Assembly: GCA_951813565.1 (NCBI GenBank)
Contig: OX638351.1
Span: 96,001 to 160,000, forward strand
DNA: 64,000 nt
Source of the DNA: an uncultured Poribacteria bacterium
Lineage (GTDB): Bacteria > Poribacteria > WGA-4E > WGA-3G
Direction: 5' to 3'
Shown here: in pieces, positions 4,955-60,700 of the stretch
How the letters are laid out: each line of letters opens with the position of its first letter
Position numbering within the stretch: position 1 is the first letter of the stretch
Program-made: the position numbers and the translations under genes
Notes under the pieces: model-generated
Told to the model about the DNA's origin: nothing
The model's input: only the letters and a program-made list of their open reading frames with translations
The model's database searches: none

Positions 4955-5142
4955 AACCCAAGTTGCTACCTATTTCGTAAATTCTCTTGTAGGAGGGGTT
5001 TCTAACCCCGACAAATGCCAAAAAGCGCATTTGGCGTTGATTTGGATTTATAACAAAAGACATCCAGAATCAACGAAAAACCCTTGTTTTTTTAGGAAAA
5101 CATCGTCTTTTGTTCAAAATTTTGCAAGTAGCAACTTGAGTG
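4955..5142. mobile_element. MITE family A variant with a 35-bp hairpin insert
   Basis: TIR AACCCAAGTTGCTAC / GTAGCAACTTGAGTG, 5-bp TSD TATAT; 188 bp = about 153 bp + 35-bp insert at 5009-5043. Confidence 0.85.
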
Positions 5143-5199
5143 TATATAGGAGCATGTATGAAAAGGAAGTCCTACATGAAATTTGATGAACGCACAACT

Positions 5200-5340
5200 G
5201 AAGCAGTAAAGGATCTCACTACTTGTGATGCTGAGATTATGAGTGGAACGCCTGTATTTTAAAAATGTCCGTATTCCCATAAAAAACCTCATTGACTATT
5301 TAGGGTCGGGAAAAGTCTGGATGAATTTTTGGCGAAGGTA
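5200..5340 (+). pseudogene. DUF433 antitoxin remnant
   Basis: TCDAEIMSGTPVF, then frameshifted VRIPIKNLIDYL and KSLDEFL; typical DUF433 motifs. Confidence 0.6.
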
Positions 5341-5374
5341 TTGATAAACAGTCCTGTATATGAATTCAAAAACA

Positions 5375-5403
5375 TTGACACTTAGGTCAGTCCGTTGTAT
5401 ACT
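5375..5403 (+). promoter_or_regulatory. Sigma70-type promoter
   Basis: TTGACA-17 bp-TATACT. Confidence 0.55.
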
Positions 5404-5433
5404 AAAACTTTAAATAATATGGAGGAATTGAAA

Positions 5434-5730
5434 ATGAATTTTGACTTTGATAGTATGGGGTTTCCTGCTGGCATCTTCGGACTCAGTTTTTTTGGTGTAA
5501 TGGCGTTTTGGATTTTGACAGCTATAGTGCACATTACCTTTGCGGTTGCCGTATACCGAGATGCGGATCGTTTAGGGACTCCAATTCTTGTGGGACCTGG
5601 AATATGGTTGATAGCCACACTTATTGGCGGTGTGTTTGTTGCAGCAATCTATTGGTCACTACACCACACCCGTCTAAATCCATCTATTTCTGTCACGTCT
5701 GCAGAAACAGACAAAGAGTCAATTTTGTAA
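5434..5730 (+). CDS. Small membrane protein (2 TM)
   Basis: GGAGGA SD before MNFDFDSM; two hydrophobic segments. Confidence 0.65.
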   Translation: MNFDFDSMGFPAGIFGLSFFGVMAFWILTAIVHITFAVAVYRDADRLGTPILVGPGIWLIATLIGGVFVAAIYWSLHHTRLNPSISVTSAETDKESIL

Positions 5731-5766
5731 AATTACCTATATTCTTAGAATGATTACAAGATATAT

Positions 5767-5804
5767 AAAAGAAACCCGTAACAGTAGTCTGTCACGGGTT
5801 CTTT
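5767..5804. terminator. Bidirectional intrinsic terminator
   Basis: AACCCGT-ACAG...CTGT-ACGGGTT hairpin between convergent genes. Confidence 0.55.
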
Positions 5805-5831
5805 GTTACGTTGTAATGATTGTTGAATAAT

Positions 5832-6710
5832 CTACTTCAATACCGACTTTAAATTTCCCCAGGTTGTGGTCAATTTCCGACTGGGTTCAACAGCGAGGAA
5901 TGCTGAATTCTCAGCGAGGTAATTAAGCACGTTCTCCGTGAGATTTCTGAGGTTGTCTCCTTCTTTAGACTTGTTATCAGTGTAAACCCCGTTGTGATGT
6001 CCAAGTGTAATGATCTTTCCATCTTTCACATCGTATTCAACAAAAGGGCGTTCTCCGCCTCCAGCGCCACCACCGCGTGTTTTCGTCCCAAGAATCTTAC
6101 CCGCGGGTGCTGTGGCTCCGAAGTTGTGAAAGTCTGAACTGAATCCTGCCTGCGCCATGCTTGTGAGAAAAATAGGTTCGTTGGTATCAAACCCCTTGAA
6201 AACTGGATGATTTTTGGCATCATCTGTTGGCTTAATGCCGATTTCAGGTGGGCTTTTGCCGAGAGGGGAAAGGTTGCGGGGAATACCACCTTTTTCAACG
6301 CCAAGGTCTGCTACATACCGAAGACCGAGTGCGGAGAGAAATATTCCGCCACCTGCTTCTATATAGTCAAGAATAGCCTTTTTGGTTGCGTCTGCAAGAA
6401 ACGGTTCAGGCAACTTGTTTGTTTCTGTATAGAAGAGCCAAAGCACAGCGAATTGGTCTAATTTTATTGCCGTGCCGCTACTGTTCTTAAAAGTGCCATT
6501 ATTGCCTGTCGTAAGTATTGTCGCTTGATAATTTTCGTCTGCCCATTGGTAAGCAGCTTCCTCAACTTCTCCGAGTTCGTTACTTCCTGCCAACAATCCG
6601 ACAGTTACATCCACCGAGTGTGTCGGCAAAATCACGACTACCGAAAAGAGCAGGACTATGAACAAGCAACGAAATGTTATTGAATGTGCCATTATGTCCA
6701 TCTCCTTCAT
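5832..6710 (-). CDS. Secreted protein with class I GATase-like (DUF4960-like) domain and C-terminal TTWG tail
   Basis: Signal peptide; YIEAGGGIFLS; ends AVEPSRKLTTTWGNLK. Confidence 0.6.
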   Translation of the reverse strand: MKEMDIMAHSITFRCLFIVLLFSVVVILPTHSVDVTVGLLAGSNELGEVEEAAYQWADENYQATILTTGNNGTFKNSSGTAIKLDQFAVLWLFYTETNKLPEPFLADATKKAILDYIEAGGGIFLSALGLRYVADLGVEKGGIPRNLSPLGKSPPEIGIKPTDDAKNHPVFKGFDTNEPIFLTSMAQAGFSSDFHNFGATAPAGKILGTKTRGGGAGGGERPFVEYDVKDGKIITLGHHNGVYTDNKSKEGDNLRNLTENVLNYLAENSAFLAVEPSRKLTTTWGNLKSVLK

Positions 6711-6964
6711 CTGTTTTCTCCAATGATAACATGAATAGTTGGTGTTTGTCTATGTGAATATTAAATATGCAATTTAACATTTTTTTTTGACAAAAAAAGG
6801 GATATGTGGTATTTTATTGAAATCTATCTCATAATAAAAACATGCACACATCAATTATGAGAAATTAAAAGGTGTAGAGATTTATGACCCAACTCACTCG
6901 CATGTGTGTTGATAACCAAGGATTTCTATGATCATTATTTTACAACATAGGATAGGAGAAAAAA

Positions 6965-7750
6965 ATGCGTTTAGATTTAACAAAGATGTTTCACGTCGGC
7001 ATTGCTATTTTAACAATGATCGGAGCAAGCGCGATGTTTGCCCAAGCCGATCTAAGCGATCCAACGCTCTCTGTCTACTATAGTTTTGACGGAGAGGGTG
7101 AGACTGTAAAGGACGGATCTGTTAATGGTAACGACGGCAAAATTGTCGGGAATGTCGCGCGAGAAGAAGGCGTTTTTGATGATGCTGTGGTTTTGGAAAC
7201 CAACACGTGGGTAGATATGAATGGTCCAGAATTTAAGAACGGGCCGGTTGATGGTTTTACAATTGCGGCCTGGATCAATCATACCGGTTCTAATGATCCG
7301 CAAACACTGCTTGATGCGATTGGTACAGACCACGAAAGCGGACTTTTCCACATGGAAATTCGTACCGGTGGTTTTAGATTTTTCCATCGCGATGGGACAA
7401 ATACACAAGTTTTCAATATCAATCCTGGCCCCGTTATTGAAGCGAATAAATGGGTGCATTTCGCGGGAACTTATGACAGTGAAAGCGGTGACGTGAAAAC
7501 TTATATTAATGGTGAGGAAACCCACTCAGCTACTGGTTCCGGTAAATGTTCAAACAATTGGGGTGTAACAGCGGGAATCGGTCACCATAAGAATGAACGC
7601 TGGTATAATGGTCTTCTTGATGAATATTATATATTTAACCGTGCTTTGCCAGTAGATGAAATTATGGATGTGATGAATGGTGCACTGTTGGCTGTGGAAC
7701 CGGAAGGTAAACTCGCCACGACTTGGGGCAGCATTAAATCGAATCGTTAG
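6965..7750 (+). CDS. Secreted LamG / ConA-like jellyroll protein
   Basis: Signal peptide; YYSFD, FTIAAW, WVHFAGTYD, GLLDE...FNRAL; TTWG tail. Confidence 0.85.
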   Translation: MRLDLTKMFHVGIAILTMIGASAMFAQADLSDPTLSVYYSFDGEGETVKDGSVNGNDGKIVGNVAREEGVFDDAVVLETNTWVDMNGPEFKNGPVDGFTIAAWINHTGSNDPQTLLDAIGTDHESGLFHMEIRTGGFRFFHRDGTNTQVFNINPGPVIEANKWVHFAGTYDSESGDVKTYINGEETHSATGSGKCSNNWGVTAGIGHHKNERWYNGLLDEYYIFNRALPVDEIMDVMNGALLAVEPEGKLATTWGSIKSNR

Positions 7751-7771
7751 GTATAACGACATCTTTTTTAT

Positions 7772-7807
7772 GGCTTGAATTCCGCGTTTATTGGATTCAA
7801 GCCTTTT
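7772..7807 (+). terminator. Intrinsic terminator
   Basis: GGCTTGAAT...ATTCAAGCC followed by a T tract. Confidence 0.65.
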
Positions 7808-7845
7808 CTATTTTTTATTATGTAATTTTATATAGGAGGTTAAAA

Positions 7846-8625
7846 ATGCGTTTTGATATGATAAAATCGGTTTCTATCTATTTTGCTGTTTTGGTAATAA
7901 TGGGAACTTGTGTAATCCCTTCCCAAGCAATTAATGACCCAACGTTGTCTGTTTACTATAATTTTGACAAAAAGGGTGATACCGTTGAAGATAGTTCAAT
8001 TAATGGTAACGATGGAAAGGTTGTGGGTAATGCTAAATGGGATGACGGTGTTATAGGCAATGCCATTGCGTTGGAAGCCAACGTGTGGATAGATATGAAT
8101 GGACCGGAATTTAAGAACGCCCCGGTTGATGGTATCACACTTGCGTTTTGGGTTAACCACACCGGTTCAGCTAATGATCAGTCGGTGTTCGACACAGTCG
8201 GTACTGATCATGGGAGCGGACTTTACCACGTCGAAATTGAAACTGAAGGTGTTAGATGGTTTCATCGAGATGGAACAAATACAACTGTCTTCAATATCAG
8301 GCCGGGACCTGTTCTTGAAGCAAATGAATGGGTTCATTTTGCGGGAACTTATGACAGCAATAGCGGTGATGCGAAAACTTATCTGAATGGTGAAGAAACT
8401 CACTCAGTCAAGGGTGCCGGAAAACTCTCAGACAACTGGGGTGCTAAGGCTGGAATCGGTCAACATAACAATGGACGTTGGTTCACGGGACTTCTGGATG
8501 AGTTTTATATCTTTGCTCGTGCCTTGTCGGCAGATGAAATTAAGCAGGTTATGGATGGCGAATTTCTGGCTGTTGAACCTGAAGACAAACTTACTACGAC
8601 TTGGGGAAGTATTAAATCACGTTGA
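7846..8625 (+). CDS. Secreted LamG protein, tandem paralog of 6965-7750
   Basis: Highly similar to the upstream gene; TTWG tail. Confidence 0.85.
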   Translation: MRFDMIKSVSIYFAVLVIMGTCVIPSQAINDPTLSVYYNFDKKGDTVEDSSINGNDGKVVGNAKWDDGVIGNAIALEANVWIDMNGPEFKNAPVDGITLAFWVNHTGSANDQSVFDTVGTDHGSGLYHVEIETEGVRWFHRDGTNTTVFNIRPGPVLEANEWVHFAGTYDSNSGDAKTYLNGEETHSVKGAGKLSDNWGAKAGIGQHNNGRWFTGLLDEFYIFARALSADEIKQVMDGEFLAVEPEDKLTTTWGSIKSR

Positions 8626-8650
8626 TAGGTAAAAGTAGCGGTTTTTTGTT

Positions 8651-8690
8651 GGCTTGAGTTCAGTTTCTCACTGGATTCAAGCCTTTTTTT
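8651..8690 (+). terminator. Intrinsic terminator, paralogous to 7772
   Basis: GGCTTGAGT...ATTCAAGCC followed by a T tract. Confidence 0.65.
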
Positions 8691-8728
8691 GGTTGTCGGT
8701 AATCAAACTTACAAAGCCTTCCTAAAAT

Positions 8729-8882
8729 AACCCAAGTTGCTACCTATATCGCGAATGCTCTTGTAGGAGGGGTTTCTAACCCCGATTTAGAAAAGAAAGC
8801 ATAAGAATTAGCTGGAAATCCTTGTTTTTCAGTAAAAAGCAATGTCTGCAAGCTTGAAATCTTGTCCGTAGCAACTTAGGTT
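8729..8882. mobile_element. 154-bp MITE (family A)
   Basis: Same TIRs as 2640-2793; 5-bp TSD AAAAT. Confidence 0.9.
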
Positions 8883-8901
8883 AAAATAGAGCATTAGGGC
8901 T

Positions 8902-9810
8902 TTACCAATTAGGGTCGTAGTCCCAATTCACACGCTGTATACCAAAACGTCTGCCATCAATTTCTGTTTGGTGGCAGACAAGACATCTGTGAAAATCGTT
9001 GACACCGTGCAATTCATGCGCTGTTACGATTTCCGGTGTGTTATGTTCGTGGCAAGTGATGCATGTATAACTGAGATATGGAGAATCGGCGTAGAGCGCG
9101 AGTTGGTCTGTCTTTTTCTTAACGGGATAACTGAAGCGGTTTTCTTTGTCATCAATTGTCCAAACATTACCCACTTTCTTGATAGAAACTTCTGCGGTTT
9201 GTGTTACTTTTATATCGTGCTGCGAGAACCACCAATGTATATCATCTGGAATAGTTTCGGACGCATCAAGTTCTTGTTGTAGTGTTGTTGCATCGACATG
9301 GAAAAGGAGAGGTTCAGATGTGTGGCACTTTGCACAAGGTACATCGTGGACATCGGTAAGCGGAAAGAAATCATCGTGGTCAAGTTTGGCTTGTCCATGA
9401 AACACAATGCTAATTAACAGGATCGGGGCGAGGATGAGATGACACCTAAGCAGCACCTGACGCGCCTTCCGAGCAGTAAGGCTAACAGCAATTCCTGTCC
9501 CTAAATTTGACAAGGCGAGTAAAAAGGTCAACCATGAATGCCAAGCAAGCGGTTGGAATGCAGAGTGGAACAATACTAAACACAACCCTAAAGATGCCAG
9601 CCTTTGGTGGTATTTTAGCCATACCTTTCGATTGCCCCAGCGAACCCAACGGCTGCGCAGGAGATAGAGGCTCGCAATAAGGATAGCAATAGCACCGATG
9701 ATGCTAATTGTGTGCCGCGCTTCACCAAAACTACCTGCTTGCCAGATGCAAAGAGAGGCTATTACAGCAGCACCGATAATCCCGTGCCCGATTTGGATAA
9801 AGACTTTCAT
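8902..9810 (-). CDS. Membrane-anchored triheme c-type cytochrome with a ferric-reductase-like TM domain
   Basis: About 5 TM helices with two His pairs; CAKCH, CITCH, CLVCH. Confidence 0.7.
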   Translation of the reverse strand: MKVFIQIGHGIIGAAVIASLCIWQAGSFGEARHTISIIGAIAILIASLYLLRSRWVRWGNRKVWLKYHQRLASLGLCLVLFHSAFQPLAWHSWLTFLLALSNLGTGIAVSLTARKARQVLLRCHLILAPILLISIVFHGQAKLDHDDFFPLTDVHDVPCAKCHTSEPLLFHVDATTLQQELDASETIPDDIHWWFSQHDIKVTQTAEVSIKKVGNVWTIDDKENRFSYPVKKKTDQLALYADSPYLSYTCITCHEHNTPEIVTAHELHGVNDFHRCLVCHQTEIDGRRFGIQRVNWDYDPNW

Positions 9811-10529
9811 GAAGTTAGTTTAGCATTCGCATAAGGTTTGGGCAAGTGAAAAGTTTTTACATAAAGACAAAGGGCAGAAGCATTCAATTTTCGTCTAATT
9901 ATCGGTTTTAGTCGAAAAGTTGGGACCTAAAAATCGTTTCCCAGATGCACGAATTGATTGTATTTTTCTTCTCATTTTATTGGAATCATCTCCTTAAAAA
10001 GTTACCATACGGTAACTTTTTTCATACCGTGGTAACTTTTTGAAATTCACTATAAACTCAGTATCTGTAGGGGTTTATAGACATTTTATTTAAGTTTTAT
10101 ATTTTTCATCTGGGTTGAGGAACACGGGTTTCCTTTTGCTGAAGATATTTTATTTTAGTAAGTTTGCGTTGTCGTCTTTGCATTAGAGAGTTACTTTCGA
10201 TGTGTTTGGGGATCGACTTTCTCTTTTCATACTGATATTATACCTGTTTCTGTGTAGTGATCAGAGGTTTTTGTGGTATTAGGAACAATAGATATCCAAT
10301 ATATTGACAATAAGTTTGCAGGAAAAGTTTGGGTTGATACGTTTTTTGCATCTTGGATGAGTGTGCATTTTGTTGTCAGCATAATGGTTGACGCGATTTT
10401 TTGGAGTCTTGGTAAAGAAATCATTGGAGAATTGAATGCCTCTGACATAAAGGGAAATTTTATGGACAAGGTAGAAAGGGTATGTTATAATAATCAACAG
10501 TTAAGGTTATACCTAAAGGAGATGGAGAG

Positions 10530-11078
10530 ATGAACCTGAAAGCCATTTTTATACTGCTGTTTCTTTTTACAACCGTGACGCTTGCTGGATGTTATACAAA
10601 ACTCGGTTATTACGAACCAGCAAATCTCAAAGAGAAACAACACAAGCAGATGGAAAAAACCGAGAAAGAAGAGATAGAAGATGTATCCGATTCTGATGTA
10701 GAAACTGAAGGTTATTATGGACGTCGTAAGTCTACCTACAGCACTTCTTATCCTTACGCGGGTGAAACTTATTGGGTGCCTTATACACCGTATCCATCGT
10801 ATGCGTATTATCCACCAGCATATTATTCACATCCTTGGTATTACGGATATGGGTATCATAGACCTTATTACCGGTATTACAGAGGTTATTATCCGTACAC
10901 AGGTTATTATGGGGGATATTACGGTAGTACTCGTCCTGCTTCCCGTAGCACCTATAAGAGAGGTGCAGTATTGAGGGAATACCGATCTGGGAACCGTCGG
11001 GCACGAACTTCGCGTAGTGTAACTTCGTCTAACCCGCGATCTGAACGCCCACAACGGAAAGCAAGGAACAGCAATTAG
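10530..11078 (+). CDS. Tyr/Gly/Arg-rich lipoprotein
   Basis: Lipobox LAGC; low-complexity Tyr-rich centre and Arg/Ser tail; SD GGAG. Confidence 0.75.
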   Translation: MNLKAIFILLFLFTTVTLAGCYTKLGYYEPANLKEKQHKQMEKTEKEEIEDVSDSDVETEGYYGRRKSTYSTSYPYAGETYWVPYTPYPSYAYYPPAYYSHPWYYGYGYHRPYYRYYRGYYPYTGYYGGYYGSTRPASRSTYKRGAVLREYRSGNRRARTSRSVTSSNPRSERPQRKARNSN

Positions 11079-11089
11079 AATTAGCACTC

Positions 11090-12448
11090 CCCGTCAAACC
11101 CCCTGCCTTTAGGTAGGGGATGTAGACGGCGAAAGTTTTGATTTAAAATATACTTTTCAATCTAATCACAATGTGGTATAATATATCATACTATATTATA
11201 ACTCTTGAAGTGATAAAAGACTATATTGAAGGTCAAAGTGGACAATGAGAAAATCTCACAAGTTCAAACTTCAACACCAATCTAACACAATCAAACTCGG
11301 CAATATGCTTGATGATATGTGGGAAATCCATGTGCATATCATGCGTTTGGCACGTAGGTATTATCGCATGTTCGGCAAAAATTTGTCTGCGTATCGTCTG
11401 AAGGCACATGTTGCGAAACTCAAAAAAACAACTAAACCGCATTGGGCGGACTTGCCGAGTCAAGTTGTTCAAGACGTTGTCCTACGTTATGGTAAATCTC
11501 AAGACGCTTTCTTTGAGAATATCGAAGACCGAAAAGCGGGCAAAACAACGCGTAAAGTGGGTAGACCGAAAATCAAACCGAGACACAAATACAACTCCCT
11601 GACCTTCACACAAGCGGGTTACAAACTTGAAGATAATCGTATCAAGATCAACTGTATAGATACATGGTTTTCCTTTCACAAACACCGTGAAATCAAAGGG
11701 CTAATCAAGACGATCACCATCAAACGTGACAGGTGCGGTGACTATTGGATATGCTTTTCGTGTGAGAATGTTGACGATTCCGAACCTAAATCTAAGACGG
11801 GTAAGAGCGCAGGATTTGATTACGGAAACAAAACATTCCTCACAAGCGACGAAGGGGACACAATAGAATCACCAGAATTTTTCAAGCAATCACTCAACAC
11901 GTTGCAATCTCTAAACAAAAAACTGAGTCGTAAGGTTAAAGGTTCAAGCAATTGGTATCGTGCGTGCCGTGCTTTGGCAAGACAACACAGAAAGGTGGCA
12001 CGACAAAGAGAAGATTGGCAATGGAAACTTGCCTCAAAACTTTGTGTAGAGTTTGACACACTCATTTTGGAAACGCTGAACCTTGACGGTATGAAACGAT
12101 TATGGGGCGTAAAGTTTCTGACCATTCTTTCTACCAGTTTCTTCAGATATTGGAACAGAAGTGTGCGAAGCACGGCAAAAAACTTGTCCAAATCTCTCAA
12201 TGGACAGCAACAACAAAACCTTGTAGTGATTGTGGATACCATAACAAAGAACTCTCTCTTTCTGATAGACAGTGGACATGCCCCGAATGTGGCTCACACC
12301 ACGACCGAGACACCAACGCTGCTATCAATATCAAACGGGCAGGCTTGGCTGCCTAAAGTGGAGCGACAGTAAGACGGTCAACTCTCTGAGAAAACCGCAG
12401 TCGCAAGGAAGCACAAGCCCCTACCTTTAGGTAGTGGGTACCTATGAC
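11090..12448 (+). mobile_element. IS200/IS605-family tnpB-only (IS1341-like) element
   Basis: Subterminal hairpins CCCCTGCCTTTAGGTAGGGG (left) and CCCCTACCTTTAGGTAGTGGG...TGAC (right); boundaries approximate. Confidence 0.75.
11245..12356 (+). pseudogene. tnpB: TnpB RNA-guided nuclease with a 1-nt deletion in a G run at about 12103
   Basis: RuvC GFDYG and ILETL in ORF1; Zn finger CSDC..CPEC and HDRDTNAAINI in ORF 12102-12356. Confidence 0.85.
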
Positions 12449-12504
12449 CATCATGCAAAGGTGATTAAAAACAAGCAAATACGGAAAATAAAGGAGAATA
12501 TAAA

Positions 12505-13785
12505 ATGAAACGTACAATTTTGGGTGTTTTTATCTGTCTATTTGTTACGGGTTTGTTTACAGTGATGTGTCCAGCACAAGTGGAGGAGATCGCAATTGGT
12601 AACACATTTGGTGTAGGTGCGCGGTCAATGGGGATGGGCGGTGCTTCTCTGGGACTTGCCGATGATTTCACATCACTATATTGGAATCCTGCAGGGATGG
12701 CACAAATTCAGAAATTTGAATTCTTCACAAGTTTTTCACATAACACTGCAAACACTGATAGTTTTTTCTCGAGCGATGAGATTACTGGGACAAGTCGTTC
12801 ACGGGTACGTCCGAATTCAATTGGGTTTGTTTATCCGTTCCACACCCAACAGGGCGGACTCGCAATAGGATTCGGCTATAATCGTCCCCAAAACTTCGAT
12901 TATCAGACAGCGATTCAAGGAGTTGACCCAAGTTCAGGCAACCTTTATAGTGGACTTTTAGTTGATGAAACCAACATAAACTCAGGAGGCATTGGGATTT
13001 GGAGTTTTGGCGGAAGTGTATATGTCACTAAGAACTTTCTAATTGGAGGTTCCGTTGACTTTTGGAATGGACGTAGCAGTAACCAATTGGATGCAACGGC
13101 TACCGACGCGTTGAACGTTGATAGCGAGTTATCCCGTTTTAGATTTGATGACGAAATTGATCGGGAATACTCAGGCGTAGGTGGGCGAGTCGGAATTTTA
13201 GCCAACTTTACAGATGCAATCAGTCTCGGTGTGACATTGGTTGCCCCGACAGAGTTGGCAGTTGAAGAGCTTTGGCGTGAGTATACCGTTATATTTTATG
13301 ATGATGGCGAAGAGGCGTCTGATCCTGCAAATGGTGCTTTGGCGTATGATATTGAAAGACCTTTTGAGATTGGGACAGGAATTGCACTCAAACTTTTAGA
13401 TAAACATTTGATTTTGGCGGGTGATATTCAGTTAACAGATTGGCGACAGACACGTTATGATCCGACACCAGCTGAAGACATCTCAAAGAATCATTTTGAG
13501 GAATTCTATGCAACAACTTTACAGGCGAGGCTGGGTGCCGAATTCCGTATACCTATCATTGATACACATCTACGTGTCGGCTATTTCCGCGATACGATTC
13601 CGTTTACAGATACCGAAGTTGAAAATGAACGCGATTTCTTGACGGTCGGTGTAGGCAAGATTTTTGAGGATGCTCTGAAATTCGATCTTGCGTATATGTG
13701 GGGTAATTGGCAGCAGTATAGGAATGATTTGACGACGAAGCGGAATACACATCGAGTTTTCGTTTCAGGAGCATATCGGTTTTAA
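12505..13785 (+). CDS. OmpP1/FadL-family outer membrane beta-barrel
   Basis: Signal peptide; GARSMGMGGA...YWNPAG; C-terminal YRF. Confidence 0.85.
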   Translation: MKRTILGVFICLFVTGLFTVMCPAQVEEIAIGNTFGVGARSMGMGGASLGLADDFTSLYWNPAGMAQIQKFEFFTSFSHNTANTDSFFSSDEITGTSRSRVRPNSIGFVYPFHTQQGGLAIGFGYNRPQNFDYQTAIQGVDPSSGNLYSGLLVDETNINSGGIGIWSFGGSVYVTKNFLIGGSVDFWNGRSSNQLDATATDALNVDSELSRFRFDDEIDREYSGVGGRVGILANFTDAISLGVTLVAPTELAVEELWREYTVIFYDDGEEASDPANGALAYDIERPFEIGTGIALKLLDKHLILAGDIQLTDWRQTRYDPTPAEDISKNHFEEFYATTLQARLGAEFRIPIIDTHLRVGYFRDTIPFTDTEVENERDFLTVGVGKIFEDALKFDLAYMWGNWQQYRNDLTTKRNTHRVFVSGAYRF

Positions 13786-13841
13786 TTCATGCTTTTATAG
13801 TAAATTCAAAAATATGTGTACATCCCTTGTAGACGCTGTTT

Positions 13842-38040: not shown

Positions 38041-38520
38041 GTTCTGAATCGCGGATTATCGCGGATTATCGCCAAATCAAGAAATCAACGGTATGAATGA
38101 CATTTAGTCATTCCCCGGGTATGAATGCCATTAAGGCATTCCCCGGATTACACTGATTTCGCGGATTTTAAGAGCCTCGTATCGGTACATCCAACCGACA
38201 CATATACGCCTTCTGTTGTCGAAGTCACATGAAAAACGACTCGTTGTCTTCAGTGCCAATATGCTGGGTAATGCCTAAAGACGAATGCACCAAATCAAGA
38301 AATCAACGGTATGAATCATGGCATTCACCATGATTCATACCGTTGATTTGGTAAATTCTGGTTCAGACATTAGTCCAATCAAGTAATATCGGGCTTACAA
38401 AGCCCTCCCACAAGAGATAATCCAACCATTTTTTCTCAAAATTGACACCTATGGGGCTATAAACCCTCCCACAAGAGTATGCCGAGCATTTGTGCCTCCA
38501 ATTCGACTTATGGGTAATAG
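38041..38520. repeat. Mosaic of REP, MITE-end and 35-bp hairpin units
   Basis: Nested AAATCAAC-hairpin units at 38074-38145 and 38292-38349; GTGG-REP halves; ATTGACACCTATGG end. Confidence 0.75.
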
Positions 38521-39843: not shown

Positions 39844-39959
39844 ATCTCAAAATACCTTGCGAATCACAAGAGTGCAGTACGTGGTGAATCAACACCGAAT
39901 GCGTCTATGATGTTTGCCCTCTTCTTTGATTTTTTGAATCTCGGATTTGCATGGATTAC

Positions 39960-40165
39960 GATGTCGCGACCAGGAGTCGCTCCTACAAGAAGAAAATCGG
40001 GCGGACAAGGTTTCCCTCCCACAAGAGGATATATCCTTAAGTTGACACCCGCCAAATGCCAAAAAGCGCATTTGGCGTTGATTTGGCAGCATGCCATACG
40101 GGGAATGCCAACAGGCATTCATACCGTTGATTTATAGGTTTCGCTTGCGCTCTACCCAACCTACA
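39960..40165. repeat. REP/MITE mosaic with three stacked hairpin units (40050-40133)
   Basis: Reverse GTAG/GTGG REPs; TTAAGTTGACACC..TATAGG end interrupted by inserts. Confidence 0.75.
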
Positions 40166-45366: not shown

Positions 45367-45440
<74 letters not shown>

Positions 45441-47264: not shown

Positions 47265-47320
47265 ACGCTATTTCTAATCTGGTATGGCGAGGTTGTATCT
47301 TGCTATTTGTCCATTTAAGT

Positions 47321-47580
47321 GAGGGGTGTGCATAAATATTTGGCGCATCAACACAGACAGGGACAGACGCCAAGTGCCGCTTGATTTATAGAAATGCGTT
47401 TGTAGTCGCGCAATTCATTGCCAAATCAACGCAGCATGCGCCAAATCAACGGTCCGAATGCCTTATGGCATTCCCCGTGTGGCATGCTGCGCCTCTTTGA
47501 ACTTGTGGACGGAAACCCACGGCGTGTGCGGACTACCTTTAAGCGCATATTTAACATCGGAATTATTTATGCACACCCTC
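47321..47580. mobile_element. IS256-like MITE carrying a REP with nested hairpin units
   Basis: TIR GAGGGGTGTGCATAAATA / TATTTATGCACACCCTC; 8-bp TSD ATTTAAGT. Confidence 0.8.
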
Positions 47581-47589
47581 ATTTAAGTA

Positions 47590-47835
47590 GAGCGTATCTC
47601 ATAAATCATTTGTAGGGCGAGGCCCCGGGGAATGCCATAAGGCATTCGGACCCGGTGAATGACTAAAGACGAATGCGCTTTTGGCATTCGCCATGATTCA
47701 TACCGTTGATTTCTTGATTTGGTGCCTCGCCATCTCTCTCATAAGTGGAAACAATGGGCGGGCACAGGGACCCGCCCCTACGATGAACGTAGATCCTGTG
47801 TAGGGAACCGTATTAACGATTTATGAGATAGACTG
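47590..47835. mobile_element. TA-flanked (IS630-like) MITE with a REP pair
   Basis: TIR core TATCTCATAAATC / GATTTATGAGATA; TA flanks. Confidence 0.7.
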
Positions 47836-47836
47836 T

Positions 47837-48307
47837 AACGTGAGTTTGATAATAATATTATAACATGAGTTTGATAATTAGACCTAAATGTAGATGTCCG
47901 TTGGGTAGAGCGAAGCGAAACCTATAGGCGTCAATTTAGTGCCTGATTTTCTTGTGGGAGGGCTTTCTAAGCCCGATATTGTGAGGCTCAAACCGTTATA
48001 TCGGGGTTGAAAACCCGACAAATGCCAAAAAGCGCATTTGGCGTTGATTTGGCAGCATGCCAAACGCGCATGCTGCGTTGATTCGCTCCCACAATAGGAT
48101 ATATCCTAAAATTGACGCCCATGAGTAGAGCGAAGCGAAACCCAACAATTCAACCGTCTTGGAAGTAATTTAAAGTTGAGTTTCACTCATTTTCCTGTTA
48201 TTTCGGCATCAAATGGAGAAAAAATCGCTCTTTTATGTCCGATTTTTTGTTTATTCCGTTCTACCCAACGGACAGTGGTTATTGAATTTTATTATCAAAC
48301 TCACGTT
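47837..48307. mobile_element. MITE with AACGTGAGTTTGATAA ends
   Basis: Perfect TIR AACGTGAGTTTGATAAT / ATTATCAAACTCACGTT; flanking duplication AGACTGT. Confidence 0.8.
47921..48125. mobile_element. REP-targeting MITE (CCYATRGGYGT ends)
   Basis: Ends CCTATAGGCGTCAATTT / AAATTGACGCCCATGAG; 15-bp flanking duplication TAGAGCGAAGCGAAA. Confidence 0.75.
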
Positions 48308-48321
48308 AGACTGTAGATACA

Positions 48322-53639: not shown

Positions 53640-53759
53640 GATAGTATCTCCTCTCTTTTTTTGTAAGTGCTTCATTGCTTATCTTATACCATAGGTGTCA
53701 ATCTAAGAAAATGTATCTGTTTTGTGGAGTAAACGGTTGTCTGAACCAAGATTTTCAGT

Positions 53760-54262
53760 TAATTCGTAGGTCGGGTTTCGCTTGCGACACCCCATAGGTG
53801 TAAACTTAAGAAAAAAATGCTGGATTTTTTCTTGTGGGAGGGCTTTCTAAGCCCAATAGAATACTCGGACATTGTGGGAGGGCTTTCTAAGCCCGATAGA
53901 ATACTCAGACATTGTGGGAGGGAGACCTTGTCCGCCCGATTGAACGAGATTCAAGCAGAAAATCGGGGTTGAAAACCCCTCCCACAAGAGGATATATCTT
54001 TAAGTTTACACCTATGGGTGTCGCAAGCGAAACCCATAGGTGTAAACTTAAGGATTTTCCGAATATAAAAATGCTCTTCAGTCCCGACAAATGCCACACG
54101 CGCATTTGTCGGGACTAAATGTGCGACAGTCTCAATCATCATGCATATTGAGAAGGGTTCATAAAAACATAGATGTTTTCTTAAGTTTACACCCGCAGCA
54201 TGCCATACGCGCATGCTGCGTTGATTTATGGGTGTCGCAAGCGAAACCCGACCTACGAATTA
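53760..54262. repeat. Large nested REP/MITE structure
   Basis: Outer inverted REP pair; two CCCATAGGTGTAAACTTAA-ended MITEs (53791-54018, 54033-54232); 40-bp tandem 53832-53911; hairpin insert 54194-54227. Confidence 0.8.
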
Positions 54263-54514
54263 ATGTTACGAACGGCGCGCTTAAAAGCACGCCCACAGTT
54301 ATGGACAAGCGGAAGTTTATCAATAACGAATGTGCGTTTAGTGATGATTGTAAGAAGCACAATGAATTGCGGTTGGTGAATGTGCGTTTGACATTCACAT
54401 TAAACGCGGATATTCTTAGAATCCGAGAAATCAGTGTAATCCGAGATTCAGACAGTAATCGGGTTTACAAAACCCTCCTACAAGAGGGAAACCCTCCTAT
54501 AAGAAAGAATTACC

Positions 54515-55702
54515 TTATTCCAACGCCTTTTTAATCCGATCTAATCCACGATTTATCTCTGTCAAAGAGGTAGCGAAGGAGAGGCGTAAATGTTTATCCG
54601 CACCGAATCCGTTGCCCGGCACAACACCTACACCTGCTGAACCGAGCAGATAATCGGTTATATCCATTGACCCTTCAATTTTTTTACCATCAAGCGTTCT
54701 GCCATAGTGTTCAGAAAAATCGGGAAAGATATAGAACGCTCCTTGCGGTTTGACATAACTGACACCGTCAATCTCATCAAAACGTTGACAGATAACATCG
54801 CGGCGTTCTTCAAATGCCTGTCGCATCTTCTCTACAGCATCTTGCGGCTCACTGAGTGCGGCAACGGCGGCTTTCTGGGCAATGGAGGTCGGATTTGATG
54901 TGCTGTGTGACTGAATGCGGGACATCGCTGAAATCGCATCTTCGGGTCCTGCGGTATACCCAATACGCCATCCCGTCATGGAATACGCTTTTGATACGCC
55001 ATTGACGACAAAGGTAATTGCTTTTGTCTCCTCGTTGAATGAGGCAGGACTCTGATGTGTTGCCCCGTCATAGAGCAGTGCTTCATAGATTTCATCGGAG
55101 ATGAGGTAGACCTGATTTTCGACTGCGAGTGCTGCTATCTGCTTAAGTGTATCCACATCATAAGTGGTACCAGTCGGATTACTCGGACTGTTGATGAGAA
55201 TCGCTTTTGTTTTCGGTGTGATTGCTGCTTCCACCTGTTCGGGTTGCATGCAGAAGTTTTGTTCGGCTGTGGTCTCAATCACGCGTGGAACAGCACCAGC
55301 CAATTTGATTTGCTGTGGATAGCTCACCCAATAGGGCGCGGCGAAGATGACTTCATCGTCCGGGTCACAGATCGCTTGCATGATGTTATAGAGTGTGTGT
55401 TTTGCACCGCACGAAACAATGACTTGGGATGCTGCATAATCCAGTCCGTTGTCTTTTTTGAATTTGTCCACGATTGCCTCACGAAGTTCGGGAATACCGG
55501 GGACTGGGGTATATTTGGTGAAACCTGCATCAAGTGCAGTAATTGCGGCGGCTTTGATATAATCAGGTGTATCAAAATCGGGTTCGCCTGCCCCGAATTT
55601 GACGACATCTACGCCATCAGCGATCATCGCGTTGATTTTCGCTGTGATGGCTAAGGTGGATGATGGTGTTACGTTTTGACTCCGTTGTGATAGTGAAATC
55701 AT
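54515..55702 (-). CDS. Class I PLP-dependent aspartate aminotransferase
   Basis: GEPDF, NSPSNPTG, SDEIY, SKAYSMTGWRIG. Confidence 0.93.
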   Translation of the reverse strand: MISLSQRSQNVTPSSTLAITAKINAMIADGVDVVKFGAGEPDFDTPDYIKAAAITALDAGFTKYTPVPGIPELREAIVDKFKKDNGLDYAASQVIVSCGAKHTLYNIMQAICDPDDEVIFAAPYWVSYPQQIKLAGAVPRVIETTAEQNFCMQPEQVEAAITPKTKAILINSPSNPTGTTYDVDTLKQIAALAVENQVYLISDEIYEALLYDGATHQSPASFNEETKAITFVVNGVSKAYSMTGWRIGYTAGPEDAISAMSRIQSHSTSNPTSIAQKAAVAALSEPQDAVEKMRQAFEERRDVICQRFDEIDGVSYVKPQGAFYIFPDFSEHYGRTLDGKKIEGSMDITDYLLGSAGVGVVPGNGFGADKHLRLSFATSLTEINRGLDRIKKALE

Positions 55703-55872
55703 ACGTTCTCCTTACATTTTATTCAATATAACCAAGATTGGACAAGTTGAGTCTGTGATTTTCTACTATACTGCAAATCTTTCTTGCGATTGGAGGGTAT
55801 CCATATAAGCGAACAGACAGCTGCCATTACATATATCGGATATAGTTCCAATCCCGATAAGGTTCAATTCCC

Positions 55873-56085
55873 TTATGATGACAAGATATGCTTGAATTCA
55901 TCAAGGTTTGATACTCTAAGGGCCTGGTGGTGCAGCTGCTTAAGTTCTTGTAGTTCCTTGATATTCTCAAGCACAGGTTTTAGCGTTTGCACGTCGTTAG
56001 GTTGAAATCTCGCCTCTAACACATCAAGTAAGGCTTCAAGAAAACTCTTTCTTTCGAAATATTGGATAACAGATGATTCGTGCAT
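55873..56085 (-). CDS. Stand-alone copy of an Rpn-type C-terminal helical module (70 aa)
   Basis: MHESS...LDEFKHILSS is paralogous to the C-terminus of 56089-56517. Confidence 0.6.
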   Translation of the reverse strand: MHESSVIQYFERKSFLEALLDVLEARFQPNDVQTLKPVLENIKELQELKQLHHQALRVSNLDEFKHILSS

Positions 56086-56088
56086 GGT

Positions 56089-56517
56089 TCATCCGACCCC
56101 ATTTGATGACAAGATACGCTTGAATTCATCAAGGCTTGATACTTGAACTGCCTCACGCAACAGTTGCTTTAGTTCCTGCAGTTCTTCAATACTTTCAAGC
56201 TCAGGCTTTAGTAATTGCAGGTTACTATGTTGAAAGCGAATCTCTAACACATTAAGTATATCTTCAATGGTACTTTTCTTTTCACCGTGCTGTGTAAAAT
56301 ATTGAGCAAAAGATGATTCGTGCATGGTTTCCTCCGATATAATTCCACGAATGTCTTGAAAATCAAATATCATGTCAGACAAAATGACCATAGAGGCGAG
56401 ATAATCCGGCTTGTCTGCCTCGTCCATTGGGATAGTTTGCGCAACTTCAACACATTCCCGTAACCACTGATCAGAATCCGTATTTTCTGGAGGTTTCATC
56501 AGGTTCGGAAAGTTCAC
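56089..56517 (-). pseudogene. N-terminally truncated Rpn/YadD (transposase_31-like) family gene
   Basis: LMKPP...WLRECV...ISEETMHESS; no upstream nuclease domain; abuts the dnaJ stop. Confidence 0.55.
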
Positions 56518-56520
56518 TTT

Positions 56521-57384
56521 TCATAGTGTCTTCGCGAGTTGTTTCAATAAATCCTTCTGTTTGCGGGACAATGATTTGGGTATCTCCACAACAAGACGTA
56601 CTCGCAAATCACCGTTTCGCCCAGATGGGTCTACTATACCTTGCCCACGAAGGCGTAACTGCTGTCCAGGTTGTGCCCCTGATGGAATCTTGAGTTCCAC
56701 GTTTTCCGTTAGGGTTTGCACTCGAACAGTACCACCTAACGCTGCGGTTGTCATTGGCACTTTCACATCTGTCACCAGATCAAGTCCGTCACGTGTCAAG
56801 GTTGGATGCGGTTGTACTGATATTTTGACTAACAGGTCTCCTGATGTTCCCGCGCTGATAGATTCTCCATGTCCACGAACCCGCAGTGTTTGACCGTCTT
56901 TTATACCAGGCGGAATCTTAAGGGTAATATTTTTTTCTCGTACGCTGACCTCTTTCTGTACTCCAAGCACCGCATCAGCAAACGGAATGGCAAGGTTAAT
57001 GCGGAGATCACGTCCACGATAGTTGCGGGTTGTTCTGCGTTGCGGTCCAAACACATCGCCAAAAGCATCACCAAATCCACCGTAAGCTGTACGTCCAAAA
57101 ATATCGTTCAAGTTTAGGTTTGCGAAGATGTCATCCATATTGGTGTAACCCTCAAACCCCATACCGTGAACACCGGCATGCCCGCGCGTATCGTAGACTC
57201 GTCGCTTTTCAGGATCAGACAGCACCGAATAGGCATTAGATGCTTCTTTGAATTTCTCCTCAGCAGTTTTGTCACCAGGATTCTTGTCAGGGTGGTACTT
57301 GACTGCTAATTTGCGATATGCTTTTTTGATTTCTTCTGAAGAGGCGTTTCGGTTGACGCCAAGTATTTCGTAGTAGTCTCTCAT
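56521..57384 (-). CDS. DnaJ-family chaperone lacking the Zn finger (CbpA-like)
   Basis: [13 protein letters not shown] region, C-terminal domain; no CxxCxGxG. Confidence 0.92.
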
Positions 57385-57445
57385 AGTTTCCCTAAGGCAT
57401 GATTATTATTTTGGGTGGTCTTGTTTACTATCTATGGATGTCATC

Positions 57446-58579
57446 CTACAATAATTCCACCAATTCATAAACAGTAGCGATGTTATGTCGTTCTTTTACA
57501 AGTGAACGACCAAATTCAAGTATAGTGGTTTCTACCCGCAATTTTCGTTGTCTATCCACAATACTTTCAATGTCCTTGACATGTGCTGCACCAACGATAC
57601 GTCGTAACATCTCCATTCCAGTAAACCCGACGGATTCGTGGAAGATAATTTGTAAGATGCGAAACTTCAGGGAGGGATCCATCTTAAATTCTTCTGTATA
57701 GGTCTCCCAAGTTTGAATAATGGCGGTAATTATTTCCGATTGTACTTTGGTATTGTCTATATGTGAATAATAGGATAACAAGTAATTTGCCCAAAATAGA
57801 CCCACATCAAATCCTACCGGACCGTAAAAAACGAACTCTGCATCTATTACCTTGGCAGATTTGTCACTGACCATTACACTACCAGTATGGAGATCTCCGT
57901 GTGTTAATCCGCGCTGTACGGAAAGAAAAATACGCTTTAGTTCATCTGCCTCTTGCAAAAATTGCCGGTCAGTTTTCAGTTGGTCTACAGCGACACCCAA
58001 CCCATCCGTATAGAAATTCGTTTCATGCTCGGTAAAAGGCAGTGTGAAAACGTAGTCCGCTGTGATCGATTGCATGAGAATGTTGGCAAAGTCTTTTCGG
58101 TACTTATCTACTGCAGAATTGTCAAGGTTATCAGCATAGGTTTTGCTATGTGCAATACCCATAAACCTTCCAATCTGTTCAGGAATTACCTGATTAACCT
58201 TTCCTGCTATGAGGTCATCTCGCAATAGGCGGTACCCGCGAAGATCCTCCATCACAATTACGGCTGCATCACTATCAAAATAGTAATGTGTTGGTACCGT
58301 CTCATTGGTAAATCGATTGTAGATCTCAAGTGCCCGGGATTCATACGTCAAACGTTCAGGCGACAACGGATAATCAGGCCCCAATATTTTAATATAGGGA
58401 GGTGCCTGCTTCAATACGAGTGAAAACTCCGGACGCGCCGCATCAAAAACCCGATAGACGAAGTTAAGATTTCCGTCCCCGATTTCCTCAGCATGCAGCT
58501 CCGTATCCACATCAAAGAAATATATCTCTGTTTGACGTTCGCGCAGATATTGAGGAATAGTCTCTCTATTTAGTTCCAT
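57446..58579 (-). CDS. mtnK: 5-methylthioribose kinase
   Basis: EIGDGNLNFV, KQA, HGDLHTGS, IDAEF, RRIVGAAH. Confidence 0.92.
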   Translation of the reverse strand: MELNRETIPQYLRERQTEIYFFDVDTELHAEEIGDGNLNFVYRVFDAARPEFSLVLKQAPPYIKILGPDYPLSPERLTYESRALEIYNRFTNETVPTHYYFDSDAAVIVMEDLRGYRLLRDDLIAGKVNQVIPEQIGRFMGIAHSKTYADNLDNSAVDKYRKDFANILMQSITADYVFTLPFTEHETNFYTDGLGVAVDQLKTDRQFLQEADELKRIFLSVQRGLTHGDLHTGSVMVSDKSAKVIDAEFVFYGPVGFDVGLFWANYLLSYYSHIDNTKVQSEIITAIIQTWETYTEEFKMDPSLKFRILQIIFHESVGFTGMEMLRRIVGAAHVKDIESIVDRQRKLRVETTILEFGRSLVKERHNIATVYELVELL

Positions 58580-58612
58580 CTTATGATAAAGCCAATAGCC
58601 AAGAAGCCTTAT

Positions 58613-59614
58613 CTATAGCAAGAGTTTTTCTGCAATCTGAATTGCATTCAACGCGGCACCTTTACGTAAATTGTCAGCAACAACCCATAGATTCAAGCCG
58701 TTTTGGATAGATGAATCTTCTCGGATGCGTCCGACGTAAACATCATCTTTTCCTGCAGCGTCTATAGCCATGGGGTACTTATAGTTATCCGGATCATCAA
58801 TTAGTTGCACACCGGGTGCGTCAGCGAGACACTCATGTGCTTGTGCTGGTGTAAGTTTTTCGTGTGTTTCAACGTTAATGGATTCAGAATGTGCGAAGAA
58901 AACAGGCACACGAACAGTTGTTGCTGAAACCCCGATAGAATCATCCGCAAGGATTTTATGAGTTTCGTTGACCATTTTCAGTTCCTCTTCGTTATCACCT
59001 GTGTCAGTAAAGGGCCAATCAAAAGCCACGTTAAAAGCCATTTGATGCGGGAATCGATCAAGCGTAATAGGTTTGCCTTCCAACGCCTCAGTTGTTTGTA
59101 GAATCAACTCGTTTACCGCTCGTCCACTTTTACCTGAAACGCTCTGGTATGTGGATACGACAATTCGTTTGATACCGACAGCATCGTAAATCGGTTTGAG
59201 CGCCACCATCATCTGGATAGTAGAGCAATTTGGATTTGCGATGATTCCATTATGCGCTAAAGCAGCATCCATATTGACTTCTGGAACGACTAATGGTGTA
59301 TCATCGTCCATACGAAAAGCACTTGTATTATCAACAACCAGAGCACCTTTTTCAACCGCAGTCGGTATGAATTCTCGGCTCACAGACGCGCCTGCCGATG
59401 AAAAAACAAGGTCTATATCTTCAAAAGAATCGTGCGTCAGTTCTTCAATGACGATGTGTGCGCCTTTGAAGGTCAAGATTTCGCCTGCCGACCTATGCGA
59501 AGCCAACAGTTTCAAACTACCAACAGGAAAAGAACGGTCTTCTAAAAGCTCCAACATAGTGTTGCCAACTGCCCCTGTTGCACCGACAATTGCAACACGA
59601 AAACTCTCATGCAT
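58613..59614 (-). CDS. asd: Aspartate-semialdehyde dehydrogenase
   Basis: GATGAVG, NPNCST, DNLRKGAALNA. Confidence 0.96.
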   Translation of the reverse strand: MHESFRVAIVGATGAVGNTMLELLEDRSFPVGSLKLLASHRSAGEILTFKGAHIVIEELTHDSFEDIDLVFSSAGASVSREFIPTAVEKGALVVDNTSAFRMDDDTPLVVPEVNMDAALAHNGIIANPNCSTIQMMVALKPIYDAVGIKRIVVSTYQSVSGKSGRAVNELILQTTEALEGKPITLDRFPHQMAFNVAFDWPFTDTGDNEEELKMVNETHKILADDSIGVSATTVRVPVFFAHSESINVETHEKLTPAQAHECLADAPGVQLIDDPDNYKYPMAIDAAGKDDVYVGRIREDSSIQNGLNLWVVADNLRKGAALNAIQIAEKLLL

Positions 59615-59823
59615 TTTTATCTACCTCAAAGTCAATCTTTTGTATTATGTTAACACAAATTTGAGACTTAAGCAACTTGTTTTGATGGACACTCTGTTAG
59701 AAGGCAATCAGTAAGTAACCATTTTTATAAAACAACGTTAATTGTAGGAGGTAAATAGGATTCCGAAAGTTTCTTAAGCGCGGAATCTTGGAAGTTAACG
59801 GTTTGAAAAAATTCAAGCGTACC

Positions 59824-59852
59824 TTGACAATGCTTGAATTATGTAGTATCAT
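59824..59852 (+). promoter_or_regulatory. Sigma70 promoter upstream of HU
   Basis: TTGACA-17 bp-TATCAT. Confidence 0.55.
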
Positions 59853-60043
59853 TATAAACAGAAACCATATTATGTTAATTTTTTCTTGACACTTTATATG
59901 TGTAAGTTTAATTACATTTTGATGTAGTTTCTATCAAATTACCTTCAGTCTGGTGCCAAACTCCTCATTTTTGCTATTTTCGAATCTTGGTGTGTGGGTT
60001 GGCTTGACTGAATAACATTAATTTATTATAAGGAAGTTAAATC

Positions 60044-60328
60044 ATGGCGAAGAAATTAATGAAAGACGACATCATCAATAGCGTCGCTAAAGAAACAGGC
60101 CTCACCAAAAAAGATGCAGGGGCTGCCGTTGAAGCGTTTACAAAAACTGTTCAAGACACCTTGAAGAAAGGCAATTCAATTGGGCTTATCGGTTTTGGAA
60201 CGTTTGAAGTCAGAACCCGCGCTGCCCGAGAAGGTCGCAACCCACAAACCGGCGAACCACTTAAGATTCCGAAGAAAAAGGTTCCTGCATTTAAAGCTGG
60301 TAAAAAACTTAGAGACGCTGTCTCCTAA
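60044..60328 (+). CDS. hup: DNA-binding protein HU
   Basis: IGFGTF, REGRNPQTG, PAFKAGK. Confidence 0.95.
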   Translation: MAKKLMKDDIINSVAKETGLTKKDAGAAVEAFTKTVQDTLKKGNSIGLIGFGTFEVRTRAAREGRNPQTGEPLKIPKKKVPAFKAGKKLRDAVS

Positions 60329-60346
60329 ACATAGAACTTGTTTAAG

Positions 60347-60399
60347 AAAAAAGCCGTTAGGTACACCTCGTTCCTGAGAGGTATTTCAACGGTTTTTTT
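60347..60399 (+). terminator. Probable terminator after hup
   Basis: AAAAAAGCCGTT...AACGGTTTTTTT stem. Confidence 0.55.
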
Positions 60400-60500
60400 C
60401 TTTTTATAGAAACTACCTCCCGACAATTCCATAATTTCTGTTCATTCATGGTAGGATGTCTCATAAACTTTACATTCTTCAAATTCTCCAGAAAATTAAT

Positions 60501-60700
60501 GGGTGTGTAAATATTTGGTTACATTGCAATGATTACGCGGCGTTTTCCACTGTAGGGCGGGGTCCCGGGGAATGCCATAAGGCATTCGGACCGTTGATTT
60601 GGTGCCCCGCCACTTCACAGGACGTGCCATGCAACGGGCAGGCACGGGGACCCGCCCCTACAATAGGAGTTGTGCGGATTTCTACAAAAACTTTACACCC
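60501..60700. mobile_element. IS256-like MITE with a REP pair and a 35-bp hairpin insert (60566-60600)
   Basis: GGGTGT...ACACCC ends; 9-bp TSD AAAATTAAT. Confidence 0.75.

Follow-up and report, generated by a model that had tools for sequence, protein, structure and literature searches.

This analysis concerns a small hairpin with a fixed tail, 33-36 nucleotides (nt) long, from sponge-associated Poribacteria. It was studied first in a 64,000-nt stretch, the window, which is C1:96001-160000 of the 5.43-Mb single-contig genome G000 (95% complete). A preliminary description of the window had placed such hairpins, here called units, at nine stretches. Units were present at all nine, but the coordinates given there included the target C and stopped one base before the usual TTGATTTG end.

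Read with the tail last, the unit follows a C and has the order C | G-8-bp stem-C, a loop of 5-8 nt, the second arm, CG, TTGATT and two variable bases. The final two bases are most commonly TG; CA, CG, CC, TA, TC and CT also occur. On the opposite, tag-first strand the tag reads AATCAA. Paired stem changes distinguish the subtypes, and a bulge of 2 nt marks one group. Units and host repeats in the window are listed below, with positions counted along the whole 64,000-nt stretch. The hosts are repetitive extragenic palindromes (REPs) and miniature inverted-repeat transposable elements (MITEs); a caret marks the insertion point, and bit scores refer to a covariance model (CM) built from 39 units.

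2640..2793, + strand: empty paralogous copy of the host MITE
4955..5141, + strand: host MITE-like repeat with inverted ends, filled copy
5010..5044, + strand: 35-nt unit with CAAAT-type arms and a TG tail; it sits at C^G where a GTAG hairpin in the MITE has its foot; 35-nt gap against 2640 and 8729; CM 46.3 bits
8729..8882, + strand: empty paralogous copy of the host MITE
38073..38144, - strand: bulged GAAT-arm unit; a second, 37-nt unit (38081-38117) just before its tail replaces one G and gives a doubled tail
38291..38350, no strand assigned: double-tailed palindrome of two 3' halves head to head, a derivative rather than a simple unit; 22-bp stem, z -11.2
39885..39903, - strand: older half unit (3' arm and tail), absent from the preliminary description; the orthologous place in G006 has one too
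40051..40085, + strand: 35-nt unit, TG tail; CM 48.2 bits
40086..40134, + strand: GCAT-arm 5' half (40086-40099) with a bulged unit in its loop (40100-40134); host 3' arm missing
47422..47490, - strand: 34-nt unit of the GCAT-arm type, inserted in a REP stem at C^G; its own loop holds a 35-nt unit (47442-47476), likewise at C^G
47627..47721, + strand: three-level stack of a bulged unit, a second unit (47653-47713) before its tail, and an inverted-loop hairpin (47668-47695) in the second
48017..48085, + strand: two units in tandem (35 + 34 nt), inserted at C^C of a REP; the second ends in a CG tail; 69-nt gap against 53963
53963..54030, + strand: empty versions of the 48016 site (53963) and the 54194 site (54001)
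54085..54111, + strand: tail-less symmetrised hairpin copy, absent from the preliminary description; CM 31.7 bits, positions 1-27
54194..54226, + strand: 33-nt unit at CC^TAT; 33-nt gap against 54001; CM 54.3 bits
60567..60601, + strand: 35-nt bulged unit in a GTAG REP loop; 18 empty copies (CTG), with one extra T here

The nesting of units reported at 47423-47491 was seen as described, and both the empty host loop and the empty REP of this nest occur elsewhere. Two other stretches were built differently: 38292-38349 consists of two fused 3' halves, and the middle unit of 40050-40133 lacks a 3' arm. The intergenic gap around 40050-40134 measures merely 19-20 nt in four relatives. The filled and empty pairs reported within the window were recovered with gaps of 35 nt (4955 against 2640 and 8729), 69 nt, or two units (48016 against 53963), and 33 nt (54194 against 54001); these empty versions are paralogous sites. 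Derivatives of the unit include double-tailed forms, tail-less forms (54085) and head-to-head fusions (38292). About 90 hairpins with an inverted loop were also found, and the arm of the host unit (ATT or ATTTG) completes their tail, as at 47668.

Past mobility and passenger spread

In a lipoate-ligase-like gene, an in-frame 36-nt unit was present in 3 of 30 aligned genomes (out of 38 with a match), and exactly those bases were missing in the remaining 27. The insertion shows 1-base homology only and no target duplication; filled and empty comparisons in general show no duplication, as originally claimed. Orthologous sites were further compared with G006, which over several stretches of the window is the nearest relative (aligned blocks ~85% identical). 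Against 1.27 Mb of G006, 45 of 58 unit sites of G000 were anchored, a few of these 45 rows repeating one locus and one being a false match. Three base-precise filled/empty pairs emerged, one of 36 nt in an ISAs1 transposase gene and two of 34 nt in a shared REP, and most of the other site differences comprised whole repeat blocks of 100-700 nt. Three G000 copies of the ISAs1-family transposase sequence (C1:3912536-3913327, 3110701 and 4876828) share one 36-nt unit, and the G006 copy is empty. Within G000, an empty twin exists for 67 of 235 non-tandem contexts.

The unit is a real, family-wide and very small insertion element with shown past mobility. The preliminary description had proposed an ultra-short, non-autonomous unit that inserts into REPs, MITEs and itself, and the existence of filled and empty orthologues bears this out. 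With 69 distinct left-context clusters among the units, it is not a fixed part of one insertion sequence (IS) end.

Within the species, no empty allele was seen in the assembled contigs of five public runs for two stretches, where contigs break at repeats, and the unit in the lipoate-ligase-like gene was present in all four conspecific runs compared. At window 53663-54515, two conspecific runs have ~2.5 kb of other sequence in place of an 850-nt repeat block, a block-level polymorphism within the species. At window 47265-48321, repeats fill a gap in which five relatives carry a two-gene cassette, probably toxin-antitoxin like.

Hitchhiking in larger REP/MITE blocks mostly accounts for the copy number; of 495 outer units, 344 have a left flank and start in common with another copy. 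We nevertheless think it very unlikely that a few ancient insertions were spread solely by such blocks and diversified by gene conversion. The shared flanks, the predominance of whole blocks among intergenome differences and the filled state of the tested sites in all conspecific runs covering them accord with this explanation, but the base-precise presence and absence in a single-copy gene largely refutes it. The same precision inside shared REPs, the 69 left contexts and the nesting of units in their own loops also speak against it.

Passenger spread was seen in G055. There, a single host hairpin is repeated on one strand 240 times without a unit and 25 times with one, almost entirely inside ~90 kb surrounding an IS200-like gene, and this gene is bordered by the hairpin. 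It follows that a filled host still spreads. A cis burst of the unit itself was considered for this same-strand cluster and rejected in favour of a burst of the host hairpin with units aboard. The ~260 hairpin copies in G055:C21:2400001-2500000 thin out within 50 kb of the gene, which is of the IS200-like subclass 1.2 type (L373:17931-18404, - strand), and relatives of this gene (L026-L037) are also bordered by similar cognate hairpins. The cluster looks like strong cis-acting amplification. In PMC6006769, subclass 1.2 is listed as lacking associated REPs.

Copy number, stem variation and targets

In G000, CGTTGATT occurs 1270 times, compared with 153-393 times for three one-base variants. The arm-plus-tail pattern gave 682 matches and its reversed control none. 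A total of 613 simple units were extracted: 314 of 34 nt, 235 of 35, 27 of 36, 34 of 43-44 (the doubled-tail form) and 3 others. This is a lower bound because the finder misses host units that contain another unit. Only 2 of the 613 lie deep inside long open reading frames, and 286 fall on one replication-strand class, as far as the poorly defined GC-skew origin and terminus allow. With a narrower pattern, 399 of 472 clusters had a single tail, and same-direction pairs (36) outnumbered opposite ones (25). At G000:C1:57850-58060, six units of two subtypes alternate, which suggests dimer amplification. Orphan tails, considered as possible marks of a long autonomous form, make up 124 of 1042 tails; 22 of the 124 belong to one subtype within a MITE, and the others listed are mostly singletons.

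All 24 same-genus genomes contain the unit by pattern count (16-486 copies), compared with 0-3 copies in 16 genomes of other families. The covariance-model scan proposed in the preliminary description found the unit in 21 of 21 family genomes, two further genera among them, and gave 1-3 weak matches each, a chance level, in 11 of 39 other genomes of the order. Across the genome collection, a strict unit pattern was found at at least 123 loci; 78 of the 80 listed carry the title Candidatus Poribacteria, and the other 2 that of 'uncultured bacterium'. Sequencing runs with G000 DNA are recorded as sponge metagenomes or under a coded organism. Among phages, a loose pattern gave 17 matches, none with the stem of the unit, and the strict pattern gave 0.

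Loop direction relative to the tail was 78:0, 23:0 and 34:3, and the unit is therefore directional. The reported stem covariation around a shared core was confirmed with 67 distinct arm pairs taken without a pairing filter, in which Watson-Crick pairs exceeded shuffles at 7 of 7 tested positions (p<=0.018). We relied on this test; an alternative count (95.6% paired; 0 of 500 shuffles) used pattern-selected rows. An A-G mismatch at stem position 2 is common (16 of 67 arm pairs). The covariation is no proof of selection, as palindromes can repair themselves. Tail type does not track stem type. In a 23-copy subtype that represents one founder within a MITE, CA...TG replaces CG...CG at the stem base, and the target base is unchanged.

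On the strand with the tail at 3', G-T pairs outnumbered A-C pairs 34:14 with the pairing filter (p = 0.006) and 31:18 without it (p = 0.085). This weak one-strand excess would fit an RNA route, in which the unit is transcribed, folded as RNA and copied back by a reverse transcriptase (RT) or RT-Cas1. G000 does have an RT linked to CRISPR and a Drt4-type RT, and the unit is near spacer length. We regard this route as extremely improbable: RTs are patchy (10 of 24 unit-bearing genomes) and were not found in four high-copy genomes (G006, G012, G014 and G017), the three CRISPR repeat types of G000 are all unrelated to the unit, insertion leaves no target duplication, and the unit matches no Rfam model. 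The Drt4 antiviral RT lies at G000:C1 about 811750-813280 (479 bits, over the cut-off). At about 3989400-3995000 of the same contig, an RT stands beside a Cas1-like frame, judged by eye, and CRISPR arrays.

A C preceded the unit in 212 of 224 contexts and, counted by context cluster, in 61 of 69. At C^G the TG-tailed form entered cleanly, without duplication and with the 1-base ambiguity that had been reported for junctions in general; other sites replace 1-4 bases or carry an extra base. Empty sites with T or A after the C (CC-TAC, CC-TAAC, C-TG and CC-AGCG) lost 1-4 target bases on insertion. At C^C sites an extra purine is often present, and the predicted alternative empty sites occur 0 times. 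Doubled tails reflect insertion of a unit directly before the tail of its host. Each insertion creates a new C^G at its edge, which accounts for tandem stacks, and the C^G in the loop accounts for nested ones. As many as four unit subtypes occur at one host site, a sign of repeated insertion or of conversion. Units were found in repeats in 69% of contexts, against 34% for intergenic CG sites. Folding of the reconstructed targets is more stable than that of background sequence (median -5.0 against -3.1 kcal/mol). Insertions occur on either strand of GTAG REPs, and a neighbouring GTAG does not set the orientation. The suggestion that the unit parasitises REP sites thus holds as a preference but not as a requirement, as a unit also sits in a housekeeping gene.

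The irregular junctions are what one would expect if a nick or break in a hairpin were mended with a unit copied or annealed through 1-5 bases of microhomology, by host enzymes and with no dedicated transposase. Such repair-templated patching would accommodate the loss of 1-4 target bases, the variable end bases, the ~90 inverted-loop forms with tails completed by the host's ATT or ATTTG, the double-tailed and tail-less derivatives, and the well-folding, repeat-rich targets. We judge it unlikely, as the invariant tail in 21 of 21 family genomes and the fixed loop polarity need specific recognition. Moreover, the insertion in the lipoate-ligase-like gene has 1-base homology only, and Ku was not found in G000.

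Candidate movers of the unit

The window was said to encode no candidate enzyme; it holds only an IS605-family derivative with tnpB alone (11082-12430; tnpB 11245-12372, guided_TnpB 132 bits) and a partial IS1595-family transposase gene (1940-2629, - strand) that adjoins the MITE at 2640. Beyond these, the window carries the main ribosomal-protein cluster with EF-G, EF-Tu, secY and rpoA, and a transfer RNA gene (45367-45440, - strand; RF00005), the only kind of match in an Rfam search of the window. Full IS605 copies with tnpA and tnpB occur elsewhere in G000. Ten Y1 matches were found in this genome: five IS605 TnpA, two IS200-like of subclass 1.2, and three like the REP-associated tyrosine transposases (RAYTs), one of these with a stop. 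The intact RAYT-like genes lie at C1:242005-242475 (+ strand) and about 5070818-5071252 (- strand), and a subclass 1.2 gene lies at about 3098010 (+ strand). Two of the RAYT-like genes have a unit inside their upstream REP and the third has a decayed unit. This does not extend to the genus as a whole, where a unit-pattern match of any kind lies near 9 of 53 Y1 loci, and the Y1 genes with readable flanks are bordered by their own GTAG or other hairpins. A single tyrosine recombinase, a 215-residue protein, was identified in G000.

We tentatively favour, with somewhat less than even confidence, insertion of the unit in trans by a Y1 HUH nuclease that is encoded in the genome itself and belongs to the RAYT/TnpA-REP type. 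The unit would enter as single-stranded DNA beside the target C, without target duplication, and would then have multiplied as a passenger of the REP/MITE repeats that received it. On the active strand the tag would lie 5' of the stem (AATCAA-CG-stem), which is also the arrangement in REPs. On this tag-first strand, AATC-AACG-stem-C | G, the last tag bases, AACG, may act as a guide: the G of AACG would pair with the last C of the unit and the C of AACG with the target G. The cut would fall at C|G at the stem base and leave a clean junction, and the base that closes the stem, a G, would come from the target; joining at the other end would be looser. Single-stranded DNA is cleaved by TnpA-REP after a C, the site being chosen by pairing with the tetranucleotide at the hairpin foot, and changing that tetranucleotide retargets the enzyme (PMC8266576). 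Applied to AACG, this foot-pairing rule would have its C3-G4 choose C|G, which is the commonest site. Enzymes of this type also recombine between different sites (PMC3333891). The fixed loop direction is expected for a strand-specific hairpin substrate, and the CA...TG subtype with its unchanged target base fits the guide reading. The RAYT clade is present in all five genomes with the highest copy numbers and in 9 of 20 others (Fisher p = 0.038, post hoc).

Several observations weigh against a Y1 nuclease as the mover. HUH mobilisation had been proposed in the preliminary description, with a Y1 or RAYT gene flanked by units as one thing to look for; among the readable flanks of the 53 Y1 loci no gene had a unit as its own terminal hairpin. 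The RAYT clade was detected in 13 of the 24 genomes with units, leaving 11 in which it was not found, and in 7 of the 16 without; its link to copy number is weak (p = 0.085), in kin that are not independent. The CA...TG subtype derives from one founder in a MITE. Insertion of the IS608 type is exact. At many sites of the unit, in contrast, bases are lost, and the 'clean' end of the unit then comes with an added G; the guide model leaves both unexplained. A C|G cut is not among the TnpA-REP sites reported in the accessible part of PMC8266576. The G-T excess weakly favours the opposite strand as the folded one, covariation can also come from palindrome self-correction (as in the symmetrised copy at 54085), and no empty allele appeared in the conspecific runs, so that mobility is attested for the past at least.

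The parallel drawn earlier between TTGAT and the ISDra2 target is not supported. Target motifs of IS200/IS605 elements lie in the flank before the element, whereas TTGAT lies inside the unit. No TTGAT precedes the five resident IS605 tnpA copies, and their end hairpins are unrelated to the unit. Resemblances to attC and to ISDra2, judged against their motifs, were dropped on sequence grounds.

A doubtful but more radical form of trans mobilisation is that the unit is a 34-base self-guiding transposon. Its own tag would mark the stem-base cut and read the target base, and it would hijack the REP-type HUH nucleases of other repeats, with no cognate gene.

Rather unlikely, in our estimate, is a family-conserved enzyme, so far unlinked to small repeats, that recognises the tail and hairpin and pastes the unit. 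The unit is family-wide, and the tested mobile-enzyme families are patchy (RAYT 13 of 24, RT 10 of 24 and DUF559 9 of 24 unit-bearing genomes); neither DUF559 nor the IS110 transposase domain was found in G000. The small dispersed repeats (SDRs) of Nostoc are likewise not known to have an identified mover. Against the idea of such an enzyme, a search that did not extend to a whole gene-content comparison found no candidate, and an enzyme lost after past bursts would leave an equally patchy distribution. The unit has no enzyme tied to it.

Relation to known small repeats

Literature searches, with most subscription journals outside their reach, found no description of this element. The closest precedent is the SDRs of the Nostocaceae, reportedly described by Elhai et al. 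(2008, Genome Res 18:1484), which like the unit are very small repeats thought to be mobile. The unit shares the features that characterise the SDR type: it is very short, has precise filled and empty sites and lacks coding capacity. SDRs are ~20 bp, SDR5 enters HIP1 (GCGATCGC) at a precise point, between bases three and four, and, as far as the accessible text goes, SDRs were not found outside the Nostocaceae among HIP1-rich genomes (PMC4390886, PMC5861425, PMC2884548). In contrast, and compared by description only, the unit measures 33-36 nt and belongs to Poribacteria; its target is a C in hairpins of many families, and its insertion often replaces bases.

Tagged REPs fall into GTAG and CGTC families (PMC3733652). 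Like them and REPINs, the unit is a 20-40 bp stem-loop with an unpaired tag at one end and hundreds of intergenic copies (PMC3733652, PMC3116915). Further likenesses to tagged REPs are the occasional in-frame gene copies, the double-foot derivatives and the lack of terminal inverted repeats (PMC8266576, PMC3333891, PMC6006769). CGTC REPs, too, have no dedicated transposase gene in the available account (PMC3733652). The differences lie in the tag, which is AATCAA rather than 5' GT[AG]G or CGTC at the stem foot; in what moves, which is a single hairpin with exact ends and not the inverted doublet of a REPIN; and in the targets, as the unit inserts into REPs and itself and no REPtron is bordered by it.

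With IS200/IS605 elements such as IS608 and ISDra2, the unit has in common the absence of target duplication, hairpin recognition and a short target rule (in part PMC8266576). It differs in being one hairpin instead of two ends and in carrying TTGAT internally; only one target base, C, is near-fixed rather than 4-5 nt, and many sites lose 1-4 nt. Derivatives of such elements would also share ends with the resident IS605 copies, and the unit does not. Members of the IS110 family (IS621) target REP palindromes without duplication, and in both respects they resemble the unit, but the unit is far too short for IS110 ends and hits many unrelated hairpins. IS1397 is another REP-targeting IS (cited in PMC3333891). 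Compared with a classical MITE (terminal inverted repeats, target duplication, 70-300 bp), the unit has 33-36 nt, asymmetric ends and no duplication. It is a variant of the SDR/tagged-REP kind, yet it fails membership of both REPs and IS200/IS605.

For REPs and very small repeats such as SDRs, exact ends and empty sites are seldom observed, which has left their manner of spread open. This family offers exact ends, dozens of target contexts, clean in-gene presence and absence, natural compensatory variants and a short list of candidate enzymes, and the question can be tested with oligonucleotides and a few purified proteins. In three genomes the in-gene unit adds 12 codons to a working gene, which is a route to protein insertions. 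If the self-guiding hairpin is real, it would be a parasite of parasites and a minimal substrate for single-strand transposition, with a two-base code that is possibly reprogrammable. If a Y1 nuclease moves the unit, a single 34-base hairpin would be enough for transposition, and a unit pasted by a REP-type single-strand transposase would be one of the smallest mobile DNAs.

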